From assembly GCF_016903815.1 (NCBI RefSeq), contig NZ_CP069973.1: a stretch of 64,000 nucleotides of DNA; one strand, written 5' to 3'. The notes below the pieces were generated by a model. That model was not told the origin of the DNA. It ran no database searches and saw nothing but the letters and a program-made list of their open reading frames with translations. The first letter of the stretch is position 1. The number at the start of each line of letters is the position of its first letter. This DNA comes from Escherichia coli (GTDB taxonomy: Bacteria > Pseudomonadota > Gammaproteobacteria > Enterobacterales > Enterobacteriaceae). A program made the position numbers and the translations under genes. Positions 20,047-25,531 of the stretch are shown piece after piece.

Positions 20047-20104
20047 GATCTCCGTTGATTTGGATTGACTTCACATCATTAATCACCGCGGTAAAACTTT
20101 ACGG
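20047..20104 (-). repeat. ~58-nt conserved leader element, copy 2, abutting the start of gene 19308..20039
   Basis: See copy 1. This copy contains the RBS (AACGGAGATC) of the downstream gene. Confidence 0.7.
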
Positions 20105-20876
20105 CATCCCGCCATTGAGCAACGCCAATGGCTCCTGATTAAAACAGAATGAATCCCCCACGAAGAAAAAATAAACCTACACGCAGAGTAAAACACACAA
20201 CAACGGCATAAATGGTTTTTAAAAACTACAAAGCCTGAAGGGAAACGGATCCACAGAACGTGCAAACAAAACACCAAAAACGCAATCAGAACGCTTTCTG
20301 CTGCTGTGAATCAACAACAATACCAAAACCTACAGCTTAACCACAAAACTCAATCACAGAGCCGAATAGCGTGTTTAAAACCTGTTTACAGATAACCCTG
20401 CCACAAGAACAAAGTTCACCAATATCAGAATCGATTTTCTCATCCTGAAAATGTTACGTTTCACTACACAGCATAAAAACGATTAACTATTGATAACGTA
20501 AACCTCATCTGAATCAAAACACCAGAACCAATCATCACGCTTTTCCTGAAAAGAGCCTTGCGCTGAGAAAAAACACCAGGGTCAGTTAATCATCTCATCA
20601 ATCTCATCGTTACAAAAACATCCATAAAACCATTTAACAAAATCATCGTAAGCACACAGTAAATCACGCCAGGTTATCTCAGCCAAATTTTCGTTTTACA
20701 TAAAGACACTTGTCTCAGGTTAACGACTAAAAACACAAAAACTCAGAAAAGGTTAAACGTAACTTCAGAAAAATAGAATATCATATTGATTGCTTAAACA
20801 GGAAAGATTGTTTTGTAGTAGCATTAAGCTGATTTTAGTTAACGTAAAAACAGGACTGACAGGTTTACTAAACTGG

Positions 20877-21095
20877 ATGTGTATCAGACAAAGCAATGTG
20901 TATAACAATACTTAATGAAAACACTTGTAGAATTGTTTATGAAAATACGTGTATGTCTGGTAAAACACTTAGTAGAAAATACGTGTATAACACTTACTGA
21001 AATGCTTAGTAAAAATACTTAGTAAAATATGTGTAGAATTATCTATTTAAAAAGATATGTATATAACACTTAATAAAAACATGTGTATATAGTAT
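20877..21095. repeat. Iteron-like array of interleaved short direct repeats
   Basis: RTGTGTATAACAMTACTTAATRAAAA-type units at 20896, 20981 and 21056. CTTAGTARAAAT x3 at 20968, 21005 and 21018. TGTAGAATTRTYTAT x2 at about 20926 and 21032. RYGTGTAT cores also at 20877, 20947 and 21081. Confidence 0.7.
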
Positions 21096-21359
21096 CATAC
21101 CGACATTCTCAACATCTTCAGACTTCCATACATACTGGGTGTTGATTTCTCACTTTTACAGCCAGCATGGAGTTTTCTGTCCTAAAAACAGAGCAGATTT
21201 ACTCTGGAATTATTTTTCTACCCCCGTATTTCAGGCCCCAGAAAAGACAATCCGAAGCAAACCGTTTGTCAGCCTCCATATCATCTTTTACCCCCGGAAA
21301 GTGATCGCGTTTACAACCAGAATGACAGCCATACTGATTATGTCGTCTCCCGGCCCCCT

Positions 21360-21563
21360 TCACATATAACATGCATGTCTGTCATTGCTTACTGCTCCAC
21401 ATGACCGGATTTCACATACAGGATGCACATTCAGTGTTTTTATCGCTACTATAACAGACAGATTACTGTCGTCTTTACTCTTCAGATTGTTAATCTGACC
21501 ACAAGAACAGCCGAACGGCAAAACGCCCTCCACAAGGGGCACATGAACCATAGTTGATAGCAT
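21360..21563 (-). CDS. Possible small Cys-rich (zinc-finger-like) protein
   Basis: From the ATG at 21563 (AGGA 6 nt upstream): MLSTMVHVPLVEGVLPFGCSCGQINNL...HPVCEIRSCGAVSNDRHACYM, 67 aa, CxC...Cx4C spacing. Divergent from gene 21731..22522. Confidence 0.35.
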   Translation of the reverse strand: MLSTMVHVPLVEGVLPFGCSCGQINNLKSKDDSNLSVIVAIKTLNVHPVCEIRSCGAVSNDRHACYM

Positions 21564-21730
21564 GTTTTTCCTAATCAAGGAATAGTTCAGGAATATTTTA
21601 TTGCATTAATAACTGGCGAATAATCGTTCTGTGAACACAAAATGCTTTTATTTGTAAATTTTATTGCATTGCACTCGTTTTATTGATATGGGGTTTAATA
21701 ACAGATAACCCGGAAAGAAGGAGAAAACAG

Positions 21731-22522
21731 ATGACATTACGGATTAACGATCAGGGGCGAGATAAACAGAATCAATTTTTATCGAAAAATGGAGAAAATC
21801 TGAATTCGTTAAAATCGCGTCATGTGCAGGATAGGCATTTACCTGAATGGCTTAAGGATAAAGTTGCAGCATTCTGGTTTTGTCTGGTGATAAAGGATAT
21901 GAAAGTGTCAGGGAGCAGTTACTATGAACTTACCATGCAACTTCCCACTTCTGAAGAATCTGTTTGCATCAGTAAGCTGTCATCCTCAACCCATGAGATT
22001 CGGCTGGAGATCATCAGGCGATGGATTGATAGTGTAGCGCAGATAGAAACGGAAGCTTTTACTAAAAATCTCGTTGATGCCATCTATAAAAACTGGAAGG
22101 AAATCGGGAACAAAAACCAGGCCACATGGCTTAAAAAAAATCCGGAACAACTCGAGTGGGCATGGAAATATATTAACATTCGTATTCCCGAGTCACATTT
22201 AACCTGGTTTTGCCCCGTCAATAACGAAGAGAAACGCATTGCCATCTTAGCATTGCTTAAAATACTGTATCCCGGAGATATACCATGCCAGTACAACGAC
22301 AAAGAGTTTCATGTCGGGATCTGCGCTGAAGAACATTTTTACAGAAGAATGCACGACGCTTTCAGAAAACAGTTTATCGACGGGAAAAAAGATAAACGGG
22401 TACAAATTAACGTAAAGATATCACCGTCCGCAAAAAGCGCTCTGGACAGACTGACCAGAGCGAGGAAAACAACACAGCAGGCTATTCTGGAACAACTGAT
22501 TCTGAACGGTAGACTGGATTAA
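21731..22522 (+). CDS. Hypothetical protein, function unknown
   Basis: Track ORF 21683..22522. The preferred ATG is 21731, with AAGGAG 9 nt upstream. No recognisable catalytic motif. The tail ..ISPSAKSALDRLTRARKTTQQAILEQLILNG resembles a ribbon-helix-helix segment. Confidence 0.6.
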   Translation: MTLRINDQGRDKQNQFLSKNGENLNSLKSRHVQDRHLPEWLKDKVAAFWFCLVIKDMKVSGSSYYELTMQLPTSEESVCISKLSSSTHEIRLEIIRRWIDSVAQIETEAFTKNLVDAIYKNWKEIGNKNQATWLKKNPEQLEWAWKYINIRIPESHLTWFCPVNNEEKRIAILALLKILYPGDIPCQYNDKEFHVGICAEEHFYRRMHDAFRKQFIDGKKDKRVQINVKISPSAKSALDRLTRARKTTQQAILEQLILNGRLD

Positions 22523-23505
22523 CTTTCACTACTTCCACTCCTGGCAGTTTTCCTCTTTTTGTAGTGTCTCCCGGCTGCAGGCATCAGGTACTTTTCCGTC
22601 ATTTCGTTGCAGAACTCTTCAATGTAGTTAATCAGCTTCTGGTGTGCTTTCACCTTTTCTTCCCCGGGGGACGCTTTCAGATAAATGTCCTCCTTTTCCA
22701 CAAGTGTATTTATAAACTCTCCCGGACATCCCTGGTTATAAAGCAACGTGAAAAACAACACATTCCCCAGTCTCTCCAGTAACTGCGATTTAACCCTGTA
22801 TTGTTGTTTGCTGAGGATTGATTGTTTTATAAAGCTTAGTCTTGTTAAAAGTTGTTCAAATCCCGGTTCCAGTTTAAAAACAGATTTTAATACCAGGGAC
22901 TGATACTCCTGATAAAAAAGTTCAAACGTCGGGGATGCAGACTGACGAACAGATTTGGCTACAACCCATGGACTAAATCCCATGATTGGGATTTCCTTCG
23001 CTCCCTCCAGCGCACTCAGAGGTAGTCCAGCAATCCATGCGTCCAGCTTAGCCGAATCAATATCCCCGCTCAAAACCTCATACAAACTGCCCGTGAACGG
23101 TTGAGTCGGTTTTTTTGTTGTTTTACCTTCTGATTGCCTGAATCCATCCACTTTTCTCCGGATATTACGCGGAATCAGCATAAAAGGCGGGACATTAAGT
23201 GATAAACGTTTACCCGTCATACGATACCAGTGGCCCACCTCAACCTTAATCCGTGTATCTGGCCTTGTATCTGGCCTTGTATCTGGCCTTAGCTCAAGTG
23301 CTATTATGTTAAGCAGGTACAGATAACGCACCGTATAACAGTCAAAATGTTTCTCCGGATCAAACGGCTCTGATCGTTCTCTGCACACAAGTCCGCTGCG
23401 CTTCAGTATTCGCTGGGTATCTTTCCAGGCCTTACTCTGAAGAATGGTGGTAACTCTGGCTTTATTAGCAATCTCACGCAGCGCATCACTTTGTTGTGCC
23501 GTCAT
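22519..23505 (-). CDS. Hypothetical protein with an internal RPDT x3 tandem repeat
   Basis: Track ORF 22519..23520. The preferred ATG is 23505 (GGAGG upstream). Its stop codon overlaps the convergent stop of 21731..22522 (TTAA). No family recognised. Confidence 0.6.
   Translation of the reverse strand: MTAQQSDALREIANKARVTTILQSKAWKDTQRILKRSGLVCRERSEPFDPEKHFDCYTVRYLYLLNIIALELRPDTRPDTRPDTRIKVEVGHWYRMTGKRLSLNVPPFMLIPRNIRRKVDGFRQSEGKTTKKPTQPFTGSLYEVLSGDIDSAKLDAWIAGLPLSALEGAKEIPIMGFSPWVVAKSVRQSASPTFELFYQEYQSLVLKSVFKLEPGFEQLLTRLSFIKQSILSKQQYRVKSQLLERLGNVLFFTLLYNQGCPGEFINTLVEKEDIYLKASPGEEKVKAHQKLINYIEEFCNEMTEKYLMPAAGRHYKKRKTARSGSSES
23255..23290. repeat. Perfect 12-bp x 3 tandem repeat GTATCTGGCCTT inside CDS 22519..23505
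   Basis: Read directly from the sequence. On the minus strand it encodes RPDTRPDTRPDT. Confidence 0.95.
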
Positions 23506-23611
23506 CTCTTCCCTCCACACTTTGTCACTCCAGATTTTTTCACGTCCATATTACCTGAATGATAAACCGGATTAGTGTGATCCGGTTCAGCGAAATCAAC
23601 AGGATACCGGT

Positions 23612-24496
23612 ATGTCATTCAGCCATTCTTCCCTCTCTGCACAAGTGAAATCATATCTGACGTTTCTTCCTGAAGAAATTCGCCAGAAAATCCTTGAACA
23701 TCTCCACGGTGTTATTCATTACGAGCCCGTGATTGGCATTATGGGTAAATCCGGCACAGGCAAAAGCAGCCTGTGTAATGCCATTTTTCAGTCCCGTATC
23801 TGCGCCACGCATCCCCTGAACGGCTGCACCCGCCAGGCTCATCGTCTTACCCTGCAGCTCGGTGAACGCAGAATGACGCTGGTCGATCTGCCCGGCATTG
23901 GTGAAACACCGCAGCATGATCAGGAATACCGGACACTTTATCGTCAGCTGCTACCGGAACTGGATCTGATTATCTGGATCCTACGGGCTGATGAACGTGC
24001 GTATGCTGCCGATATTGCCATGCATCAGTTTTTACTGAATGAAGGTGCAGATCCCTCGCGTTTTCTGTTTGTTCTCAGCCATGCCGATCGCGTGTTTCCT
24101 GCTGAAGAATGGAACGACACAGAAAAATGCCCGTCCCGTCAGCAGGCGCTCTCACTGGCGACGGTGACAGCCCGGGTGGCAACCCTGTTCCCTTCATCAT
24201 TTCCGGTACTCTCCGTTGCTGCACCTGTCGGCTGGAACCTTCCGGCGTTTGTGTCGCTGATGATCCACGCACTGCCACCACAGGCAACCAGCGCGGTGTA
24301 TTCACATATCCGGGGAGAAAACCGCTCTGAACAGGCCCAGAAACACGCACAACAGACTTTTGGTGACGCCATCGGGAAAAGCTTTGACGCTGCCGTTGTC
24401 CGGTTCAGTTTTCCGGCCTGGATGTTACAGCTTCTCCGTAAAGCCCGGGACCGCATTATCCACCTGCTGGTCACACTGTGGGATCGTCTGTTCTGA
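23612..24496 (+). CDS. YeeP/YkfA/YfjP-family GTPase (CP4-type prophage-like island)
   Basis: 294-aa ORF with P-loop GKSGTGKSSLCNAIF, G3 motif DLPGIGE and SHAD. First gene of the yeeP...cbtA module. Confidence 0.85.
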   Translation: MSFSHSSLSAQVKSYLTFLPEEIRQKILEHLHGVIHYEPVIGIMGKSGTGKSSLCNAIFQSRICATHPLNGCTRQAHRLTLQLGERRMTLVDLPGIGETPQHDQEYRTLYRQLLPELDLIIWILRADERAYAADIAMHQFLLNEGADPSRFLFVLSHADRVFPAEEWNDTEKCPSRQQALSLATVTARVATLFPSSFPVLSVAAPVGWNLPAFVSLMIHALPPQATSAVYSHIRGENRSEQAQKHAQQTFGDAIGKSFDAAVVRFSFPAWMLQLLRKARDRIIHLLVTLWDRLF

Positions 24497-24614
24497 GCGC
24501 CCCGGAGTCCCCCGTGGCAACCGTATACCTTTACACGACAACGGATTACGGTAACCACTGCCGTATACCGTCTGTCATTATCAATAACACGCTCTTTAAT
24601 TTCAGAGGTCAGTC

Positions 24615-25292
24615 ATGAATACCAGAATTCTTTTTCCCCTGCTGTTCACTGTGGCATCCTTCTCCGCCTCCGCCGGCAACTGGGCTGTCAAAAACGGCTG
24701 GTGTCAGACCATGACGGAAGATGGTCAGGCACTGGTAATGCTGAAAAATGGCACGATTGGTATTACCGGCCTGATGCAGGAATGCCCGAATGGCGTACAG
24801 ACGCTCCTGGGCAGCCGTATCAGTATTAACGGTAACCTGATCCCCACATCACAAATGTGTAATCAGCAGACGGGATTCAGGGCTGTTGAGGTGGAAGTCG
24901 GACAGGCGCCGGAAATGGTCAAAAAAGCCGTTCACTCCATAGCAGAGCGTGATGTGTCCGTTTTACAGGCATTTGGTGTACGAATGGAATTCACCCGCGG
25001 TGATATGCTGAAGGTCTGTCCGAAATTTGTCACATCACTTGCCGGTTTTTCCCCGAAACAGACACCCGCCATTAATAAAGATTCCGTCCTGCAGGCTGCC
25101 CGGCAGGCATACGCCCGGGAATATGACGAGGAAACAACAGAAACCGCTGATTTTGGCTCTTACGAAGTAAAAGGCAATAAGGTTGAGTTTGAAGTGTTCA
25201 ATCCTGAAGACCGTGCGTACGACAAAGTGACCGTCACGGTTGGTGCTGACGGTAATGCCACCGGTGCCAGCGTTGAATTTATCGGAAAATAG
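24615..25292 (+). CDS. Exported protein of unknown function
   Basis: 225-aa ORF with signal peptide [20 protein letters not shown]. It occupies the slot that holds the Ag43 gene in CP4-44-type islands. Confidence 0.6.
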
Positions 25293-25297
25293 CCGGT

Positions 25298-25531
25298 ATG
25301 TCGGACTGTCACCCTGTTTTATTGCCCGAAGGCCCTTTCTCACGCGAACAGGCGGTTGCCGTCACAACAGCTTACCGCAATGTGCTTATTGAAGATGACC
25401 AGGGAACGCATTTCCGGCTGGTTATCCGTAATGCTGAAGGTCAGTTGCGCTGGCGATACTGGAATTTTGAACCTGATGCCGGAAAACAGCTAAATCCGCA
25501 TCTCGCCAGTGAGGGAATTCTCAGGCAATAA
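25298..25531 (+). CDS. Small DUF905-like island protein
   Basis: 77-aa ORF ..[53 protein letters not shown]... Position and size match the DUF905 genes of CP4-type islands. Confidence 0.6.

Follow-up and report, generated by a model that had tools for sequence, protein, structure and literature searches.

The stretch analysed here (the window) comprises 64,000 nucleotides of the Escherichia coli contig NZ_CP069973.1 (assembly GCF_016903815.1), and the subject of this account is a pair of convergent genes within it, (ii) and (iii), which lie between a YagK/YfjJ-type gene and a YeeP/YfjP-type GTPase gene in a CP4-like island backbone. A first-pass annotation made from the sequence alone had grouped these two genes with a small Cys-rich open reading frame (ORF) as a three-gene module of unrecognised families. 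The coordinates, the ribosome-binding sites, the shared TTAA double stop, the threefold RPDT repeat, the AT-rich spacer between the small ORF and gene (ii) (167 bp, 31% GC) and the Cys pattern were all confirmed in the sequence; the small ORF did not survive as a gene. The features at the core of the locus are as follows.

21731..22522, plus strand: gene (ii), 263 codons, AAGGAG 7 nt before the ATG; hypothetical protein WP_000175256.1 of the Prokaryotic Genome Annotation Pipeline (PGAP)
22406..22519, plus strand: ribbon-helix-helix (RHH)-like domain of (ii), predicted to bind DNA; aa 226-263, VQINVKIS-PSAKSALDRLTRARK-TTQQAILEQLIL
23505..22519, minus strand: gene (iii), 328 codons, GGAGG before the ATG; PGAP hypothetical protein WP_029396404.1
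23254..23290, no strand assigned: perfect 12-bp tandem repeat (3.1 copies), encoding RPDT three times at aa 73-84 of (iii)
22519..22522, no strand assigned: TTAA in the window sequence, holding the stop codons of both (ii) and (iii)
21360..21563, minus strand: 67-codon Cys-rich ORF with CxC and Cx4C motifs, AGGA 5 nt upstream of the ATG; an open frame, unsupported as a gene

A convergent gene pair between two outward-reading arms

Genes (ii) and (iii) are real protein-coding genes, since both are annotated by PGAP and their uncorrected ratios of non-synonymous to synonymous polymorphism (pN/pS) lie between 0.43 and 0.71. The small ORF is open in six alleles at ~90% nucleotide identity; its pN/pS against five variant loci is 1.2-2.1, with mostly non-synonymous substitutions, its Shine-Dalgarno sequence is restricted to the window's allele and absent from all others, and its Cys residues are unstable among alleles (position 12, for example, is E, C or G). 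The 3' third of the frame sits on a conserved noncoding block with 1-nt and 11-nt indels. An insertion sequence (IS) of the IS3 type splits the ORF in NZ_CP019250, where (ii) and (iii) are intact; in the third allele type it is lost, the DNA being unrelated from 21425 onward; it is likewise absent from other genera, and no gene was called at this position in the nine E. coli RefSeq loci inspected, in five other-genus loci or by the gene callers of the remaining assemblies. A zinc-binding Cys-rich protein was rejected on the pN/pS, the lost Shine-Dalgarno sequence, the changing Cys residues and the IS split. The first-pass annotation had proposed a small DNA-binding-type protein, and had itself named a lack of conservation as an outcome that would count against it; this is what was found, as the Shine-Dalgarno sequence is not kept, an IS splits the frame and other alleles are without it. 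In its substitution pattern the small ORF behaves as noncoding DNA, and the contrast of its pN/pS with that of (ii) and (iii) therefore makes the module a pair and not a trio.

All 14 loci with both genes have them in convergent orientation. In Serratia, Lelliottia, two Salmonella and Enterobacter loci, where (iii) is 22-32% identical, the order is GTPase arm (leftward), (iii) (rightward), (ii) (leftward) and AlpA/YagK arm (rightward), with the single exception that a glycosyltransferase gene takes the place of the GTPase gene in Enterobacter; one Serratia locus was recovered by a search with a subset of the (iii) alignment. The same order is found in all three Escherichia allele types. The pair lies exactly at the meeting point of two outward-reading arms, each of its genes having a divergent promoter region in common with one arm. 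The co-occurrence put up for checking at first pass accordingly stands for (ii) and (iii), which are convergent in every Escherichia allele type with both genes and in the five other-genus loci, and falls for the small ORF.

Of 5426 complete E. coli genomes, 741 (~14%) have the (iii) family, and the window's allele of the (ii) promoter and N-terminal half in 53-63 genomes only. The pair was found in 2 of 72,556 plasmids, in 1 of 2.9 million viral contigs and in none of the phage records, and a phage or plasmid association was rejected on this near-absence. Each gene occurs without an intact partner in complete genomes: in locus L007 (iii) is intact and (ii) is split by IS3, in L012 (ii) is intact and (iii) truncated, and L014 has only a (iii)-like gene. 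In this last locus (E. coli PK8241, NZ_CP080139; L014 3996-5219) a single 407-aa protein replaces the pair, with no (ii) or RHH partner; hhalign relates this protein remotely to (iii) (probability 94%, E 1.3e-7), and its N-terminus is extended by a Cys-rich segment, CxxxxC...CxxH. The IS insertions and truncations of either gene, the only moderate constraint and the many related islands without the pair would all be expected if the genes were functionless relics of a decaying island, but full-length homologues with invariant motifs and the same synteny at 22-32% identity in five genera, together with a pN/pS below 1 for both genes, unlike that of the neighbouring small ORF, make such decay very improbable.

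The TTAA overlap of 4 nt is present in every inspected E. coli locus with both genes and in all three allele types, and is retained even where (ii) has diverged to 23% identity and other codons flank the stops. The first-pass emphasis on this overlap holds for Escherichia and not for the other four genera, in which the two genes are separated by gaps of 121, 41, 52, 69 and 15 bp (Serratia, Lelliottia, the two Salmonella loci and Enterobacter, respectively); since these gaps measure 15-121 bp, overlap as such cannot be the functional feature that is conserved. On these alignments it is a lineage trait of Escherichia, and the conserved features are convergence and position. As had been noted, no terminator separates the genes: in the window, no terminator-like site lies between or inside (ii) and (iii) and no hairpin forms at the junction (z = 0.3 and 0.6), and a bidirectional terminator there was rejected. 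A type-3 junction (L003 6915-7008) is spanned by a stable hairpin (minimum free energy -23.6, z = -3.7), which could be a terminator embedded in coding sequence.

Lacking a terminator between them, each of the convergent genes would have to be transcribed antisense into the other, and the transcriptional interference or antisense coupling, and the regulatory switch, that had been proposed on this ground are plausible from sequence. A narrower proposal, compatible with the control function set out below, makes the stop-codon overlap itself the functional core, acting by antisense/RNase III coupling or by RNA polymerase collision. The double stop is kept in three Escherichia allele types despite unrelated flanking codons, the window junction has neither a terminator-like site nor a hairpin, and convergence is universal. 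We nevertheless consider this distinctly unlikely: Serratia, Lelliottia, Salmonella and Enterobacter are without the overlap, the type-3 hairpin is placed where termination may occur, and TTAA would also be maintained simply by selection on both stops.

The two protein families and the RHH-like tail of gene (ii)

The (ii) protein is basic (pI 9.25) and consists of a Trp-rich N-terminal domain of 215 aa, for which no relatives were detected, and a C-terminal RHH-like domain. Homologues were traced down to 23% identity. The full protein gave nothing significant in Pfam, NCBIfam, PADLOC, PHROGs or PDB sequences. The last 40 residues are near-invariant across the Escherichia alleles of types 1 and 2, with clear similarity in Enterobacter, and the pattern RVQINVKIS / PSAKSALDRLTRARK / TTQQAILEQLIL, an alternating-polar strand followed by two helices, is kept among the homologues. 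RHH_1 (PF01402) matched full-length (ii) at 13.7 bits (cut-off 20.5, E 0.065) and the tail alone at 18.1 bits (cut-off 20.5, E 0.0026), and RepB-RCR_reg (PF10723) matched the tail alone at 15.6 bits (cut-off 21). When the tails of eight diverged homologues were scanned alone, RepB-RCR_reg matched all eight (best 2.6e-4) and RHH_1 six of them (best 5.9e-5), all reported bit scores being sub-threshold. CopG aligns in register with the tail, and an Arc-like PHROG matches 4 of 11 members of the (ii) family.

The AlphaFold2 (AF2) monomer of (ii) has an overall pLDDT (predicted local distance difference test score) of 51.5 from a shallow alignment, with helices at 232-245 and 249-258 modelled at pLDDT 75-80 and the strand unmodelled, as expected of an RHH strand because the run had no dimer partner. 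A Foldseek search of this model against the PDB returned no match at E <= 0.001; a ParG structure was among the weak, non-significant matches. Both AF2 models of the pair are poor because the alignments were shallow, having been built before the distant relatives were known. The RHH-like tail noted at first pass is thus supported by consistent matches in all diverged homologues at sub-threshold scores, and the C-terminus of (ii) is likely, on sequence comparison, to be a DNA-binding RHH domain; we grade it as likely and not as proven because all reported bit scores fall below the Pfam cut-offs. In this respect gene (ii) presents a known DNA-binding fold in a new architecture. An iteron-binding Rep initiator profile (phrog_2562) matched only 2 of 11 family members, at E 0.015 over 70 residues, and membership of that family was not adopted.

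The (iii) protein is also basic (pI 9.55) and mostly helical in its AF2 model (pLDDT 45.8, shallow alignment). The first search gave 67 clusters at 90% identity, mostly from E. coli, and a profile search of 1.84 billion proteins gave 49 representatives, of which ~17 are full-length distant relatives from Citrobacter, Hafnia, Lelliottia, Enterobacter, Salmonella and Serratia. The alignment shows the motifs SxAWxNTQxxLKRSG, IVPxxIRRKxDxFxQ, GSLY and LLExLGxALFF as well as a basic tail, and among the conserved residues there is no catalytic-looking set and no recognisable enzymatic or toxin motif. The RPDT repeat varies from one to three copies among close homologues and is therefore taken as a slippage-prone loop. 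Gene (iii) had no match in Pfam, NCBIfam, PADLOC, PHROGs or PDB, none of 21 family members matched a known family or a PDB entry, and by these sequence searches (iii) is an orphan protein family. The description of the families as unrecognised accordingly stands for (iii), which matches no known family, and needs amending for (ii), which gives RHH-type matches only. Neither family matched K-12 YfjH or YfjM, and the two proteins are not paralogues of each other (hhalign probability 0.2%). A literature search by WP accession found nothing for (ii) or (iii), and the gene pair is without prior description in the literature searched.

Candidate cis elements and island setting

The intergenic regions on both sides of the pair contain repeats, and the following elements were listed.

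21578..21598, plus strand: two direct repeats with an 11-bp period, AGGAATAGTT / AGGAATATTT (GAATAG), upstream of (ii); candidate RHH operator
21595..21670, plus strand: two exact copies of ATTTTATTGCATT, one at 21595 and one at 21658, within the promoter region of (ii) (31% GC)
23509..23555, no strand assigned: 15-bp direct repeats (2.9 copies) and core TCCAGATTTTTTCACGTCCATATTACC (23529-23555), in the 106-bp divergent intergenic region between (iii) and the GTPase gene
23565..23587, no strand assigned: perfect 8-bp inverted repeat AACCGGAT-N7-ATCCGGTT, between the promoter core and the GTPase start

Of the GAATAG repeats the window has two copies; L008 has four, spaced at exactly 11 bp, and L007 and L011 have five to six. 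The array accompanies the type-1/2 RHH sequence and is missing from the type-3 allele, which has a different RHH strand. A general enrichment of GAATAG in the window or near the YagK gene was rejected (21 copies against 17 expected, none near YagK). The core TTATTGCA has two further copies upstream of the type-3 allele in L009. In the Salmonella homologues of (ii), perfect palindromes of 16-22 bp (AATAAGGGAACGTTCCCTTATT at ~8790-8815 in L017 and CAGGGAACGTTCCCTG at ~8835-8855 in L018) lie just upstream of the ribosome-binding site and are candidate operators. LexA-box-like sites (TACTG-N10-CAGTA, 16/20 consensus) occur in Lelliottia (L016 9046-9065) and Salmonella (L017 8912-8931), 140-170 nt upstream of the (ii) homologue and between it and AlpA/YagK; no LexA box was found in any Escherichia locus examined. 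On the other side of the pair, the core TCCAGAnnnTnTCACnnCCATATTACC of the spacer between (iii) and the GTPase gene is recognisable in Serratia, Lelliottia and Salmonella, where the flanking proteins are only ~25-30% identical. The inverted repeat at 23565-23587 is present in all E. coli alleles including the pair-less L014, with one change in the arm (AGCCGGAT) in L002 and L003.

Comparison of the alleles delimits a variable cassette between conserved flanks, which spans 21595-22086 in type 2, 21425-22709 in type 3 and 21230-23537 in the 407-aa allele. The type-2 cassette consists of the (ii) promoter and the first 118 codons of (ii). To the left of the pair, the interval 20040-21595 (1.55 kb, 37% GC) holds no credible gene and is 74-93% conserved among variant islands; with its 1-nt and 11-nt indels it is therefore conserved noncoding DNA. 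Within it, alleles differ at the iteron array (~20900-21100) by a 52-bp block and smaller indels. The most conserved noncoding block, near-identical even in type 3, is 21296-21400, which overlaps the 3' end of the small ORF and holds an inverted repeat AATGACAG...CTGTCATT (arms 21321-21341 and 21366-21386) with no Rfam match; this candidate could be an RNA or a protein-binding site. Two loci carry a 176-aa gene (WP_000778605.1; L003 9433-9963 and L014 2302-2832, corresponding to ~20214-20503 of the window, which is without it) inside the noncoding stretch, and its product has a faint match to NikA, a mobilisation RHH protein (E 0.011). An Rfam scan of 18500-25500 yielded no credible RNA family, the sole match being a chance-level PhotoRC-I inside the YagK gene.

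RHH proteins include CopG and RepB of rolling-circle replicons, the centromere binders ParG and ParR, and the relaxosome proteins TraY and NikA. Such precedents admit a DNA-handling role, in which the RHH domain of (ii) would mark a site in cis at which the element is replicated, segregated, mobilised or packaged, and (iii) would be an adaptor; the iteron array, the conserved noncoding block, or an ori- or oriT-like site for the neighbouring HUH endonuclease would be candidate sites. RepB-RCR_reg is the most consistent match (8/8 homologues), the neighbour on the side of (ii) is always an HUH Rep-like gene, and the 1.55-kb noncoding stretch is conserved (74-93%) with iterons of variable copy number; the faintly NikA-like protein inserted in some alleles and the ParG structure among the weak fold matches point the same way. 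The domain matches, however, classify the RHH fold only and not its function, the only replication-initiator match (E 0.015) involved 2 of 11 members, and the element is virtually absent from plasmids. ParR of R1, ParG of TP228 and omega of pSM19035 resemble (ii) in combining an RHH domain, here predicted, with direct repeats of about one helical turn (11 bp, 2-6 copies in these loci), but (ii) has no ParM- or ParA-type NTPase in its operon, the GTPase of the island being Era/dynamin-like and in a separate divergent unit; moreover, the element is chromosomal and integrated, and its candidate sites are predicted from sequence. Since no Walker-type or actin-like NTPase is co-transcribed with (ii) and the pair occurs on only 2 of 72,556 plasmids, the locus does not classify as a partition system of type Ib or II. 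Overall we regard a DNA-handling role as unlikely.

The pair is set in an identifiable island. The 3.4 kb around it are 100% identical to chromosomes of E. coli strain 222 and many human and avian isolates, and in the strain 222 record the region is part of a composite island adjoining the kps capsule genes. Its immediate neighbours head the two arms.

19308..20039, minus strand: YagK/YfjJ gene ('inovirus Gp2', HUH Rep-like), PF11726 (YagK/YfjJ_C) 1.1e-35 and PF23343 (REP_ORF2-G2P) 6.9e-9
23612..24496, plus strand: YeeP/YfjP-type GTPase gene, MMR_HSR1 7.5e-15, heading the arm divergent from gene (iii)

The YagK/YfjJ gene, which heads the arm divergent from gene (ii), is syntenic in all related loci, and the GTPase gene in four of the five other-genus loci. 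Downstream of the GTPase gene follow genes for a 225-aa protein, DUF905, DUF932, an antirestriction protein, RadC, DUF987, the YeeU antitoxin, the CbtA toxin, DUF5983, DUF957 and DUF4942. The locus is a CP4-like island backbone, and the host elements are a family of tRNA-associated enterobacterial genomic islands with an integrase, AlpA, the YagK/YfjJ HUH endonuclease, cargo and a GTPase-DUF932-ArdB-RadC-CbeA/CbtA operon. Such elements have been described as uncharacterised and integrative, with an integrase, an excisionase, an HUH endonuclease, cargo and a RadC/ArdB/CbtA 'moron' block (PMC12458937), and a similar class is present in Pseudomonas (bioRxiv 10.1101/2024.08.29.610337); both sources give the core functions of this class of mobile element as unknown (PMC12458937; bioRxiv 10.1101/2024.08.29.610337). 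Just left of the YagK/Gp2 gene lies a gene for a TIR-domain protein (window ~18180-18884; L001 17781-18485), with a second YagK/YfjJ-domain gene further left, which suggests stacked island remnants and defence cargo. Beyond AlpA, a metagenomic island (L002 26-2255) has among its cargo a 348-aa actin-like (HSP70/MreB) protein, a protein of 124 aa and a second small GTPase.

Proposed transcriptional control of the island backbone and other possible roles

Shared divergent control regions, an RHH-like product and repeat arrays therefore make transcriptional control the most likely function, and we tentatively read the pair as a conserved backbone regulatory module that may control transcription of the island backbone, a reading to which we give somewhat less than an even chance. 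From the anatomy and conservation of the locus we infer DNA binding, its targets and transcriptional interference. In this scheme (ii) would be an RHH repressor of the CopG/RepB type; by binding the GAATAG repeats of 11-bp period that precede its gene, it would both regulate itself and set the expression of the adjacent AlpA/HUH-Rep arm. Gene (iii) would act at the conserved promoter/operator core that it has in common with the GTPase operon, whether on its own or as partner to (ii), and convergent read-through would carry each transcript antisense into the other gene, giving mutually antagonistic, switch-like expression.

Several observations support such control. The synteny is fixed across genera, an RHH signal appears in every diverged homologue and both proteins are basic; the 11-bp array varies in copy number and tracks the RHH type, Salmonella having palindromes instead. 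The core and 15-bp repeats between (iii) and the GTPase gene are conserved across genera. The (ii) promoter and N-terminal half are swapped as one allelic cassette, in the manner of immunity and regulatory regions, and the pair is not cargo-like, having no PADLOC match and being near-absent from plasmids, phages and viral contigs.

A number of points weigh on the other side. The YagK gene is 1.7 kb away with no GAATAG repeat near it, so that the window offers no cis evidence for control of that arm, and no convincing sigma-70 promoter was found for (ii) or (iii). The (ii) protein of the window does not reach the Pfam cut-off with any RHH score, the AF2 models are poor (pLDDT 51.5 and 45.8) with no significant match in the fold search, and a binding role of (iii), whether to DNA or to protein, is hypothetical. 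Many related islands are without the pair: (iii) is found in 741 of the 5426 genomes, whereas 1879 match part of the 3.4-kb region (including part of the GTPase gene), and one allele has the lone 407-aa (iii)-like gene and no (ii). The corresponding slot of K-12 CP4-57 (L015, 2761351-2767355) contains abpB-abpA, yfjM and rnlA-rnlB and no pair. The pN/pS of ~0.5, finally, denotes moderate constraint only.

The closest known parallels to control by (ii) are CopG of pMV158 and the PF10723 proteins, RHH repressors of HUH Rep expression in rolling-circle replicons: the strand, helix and helix of (ii) align in register with CopG, an HUH Rep-like gene (YagK/YfjJ, PF23343) is near, and direct repeats lie upstream of (ii). 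CopG, however, is a protein of 45 aa, co-transcribed upstream of rep, whereas (ii) has 263 aa with its 215-aa N-terminal domain, is divergent from an HUH gene 1.7 kb away, scores below threshold and has no known antisense RNA.

If the pair were cargo, the YfjJ-to-GTPase slot would house in it a new system for anti-phage defence or abortive infection, or one resembling a toxin-antitoxin pair, with (ii) antitoxin-like and (iii) the effector. The antitoxins HicB and BrnA have C-terminal RHH domains behind an N-terminal part that binds the partner, and (ii) is similar in placing an RHH-like domain behind an N-terminal part in a two-gene unit on a mobile element. The homologous slot of CP4-57 carries two proven defence systems, AbpAB and RnlAB (PMC10732053). 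Several highly diverged alleles with mosaic exchange, the low GC of the pair (41-45% against 47.7% for the window), its narrow taxonomic range and the nearby TIR-domain gene are likewise in keeping with cargo. Set against this, none of the three ORFs matched a PADLOC-DB 2.0 family at E <= 1, and the conserved residues of (iii) include no recognisable enzymatic or toxin motif. Unlike HicB and BrnA, the pair is convergent and not co-transcribed in all genera, both proteins are large with no evident toxin fold, and either gene may occur without an intact partner; the existence of both single-gene states in complete genomes (L007, L014, L012) makes obligate toxin-antitoxin dependence unlikely. With convergence in 14 loci, no toxin family match and these single-gene states, the pair does not classify as a type II toxin-antitoxin system. 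The yfjJ-yfjP slot of CP4-57 (abpB-abpA-yfjM-rnlA-rnlB) has the same position relative to the YagK/YfjJ and GTPase genes, but no sequence kinship to the pair was found, the DNA similarity being limited to the GTPase gene, and its proven defence cargo contrasts with a pair that is syntenic across genera. The neighbours of all three named systems in the slot are oriented like the GTPase arm, and CP4-57 is therefore a differently organised cousin. As position and partnership are conserved across five genera in a backbone-like manner, we consider a cargo role quite doubtful.

Control of the backbone by the pair could also be conceived more broadly, with the pair as the master control module of widespread enterobacterial satellite-like 'defence-island' elements. 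The RHH repressor (ii) would then possess a novel sensor domain and (iii) would found a protein family gating the GTPase-ArdB-RadC-CbtA arm, and their convergent arrangement without a terminator would form a bistable switch between quiescence and excision, replication or transfer, possibly responsive to a helper phage or to SOS; for the SOS element there is the LexA-box-like site in two relatives. The pair itself compares with Stl/Str of the Staphylococcus aureus pathogenicity islands and with lambdoid immunity regions, which likewise lie at the junction of opposite arms and exchange regulator and cis sites as a mosaic cassette, and with which the LexA-box-like site near two relatives of the pair also agrees. 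Those systems, in contrast, use divergent helix-turn-helix regulators, whereas the genes here are convergent, (ii) is RHH-like and (iii) has no recognisable DNA-binding domain; nor is a helper phage or inducer known for the island of the pair. We regard the version with a master control module as speculative and unlikely.

Should the pair prove to be an ordinary autoregulated RHH repressor with an accessory protein, the gain would be modest, namely the annotation of two hypothetical families in ~14% of complete E. coli genomes. Much of the virulence and anti-phage cargo in E. coli and related bacteria resides on islands of this architecture, and a conserved pair fixed in position where the recombination/replication arm meets the GTPase-antirestriction-CbtA arm is an obvious candidate for control of the life cycle of the element. 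Together with its two repeat arrays, the pair would offer a small and concrete target for the study of island silencing, excision and mobilisation.

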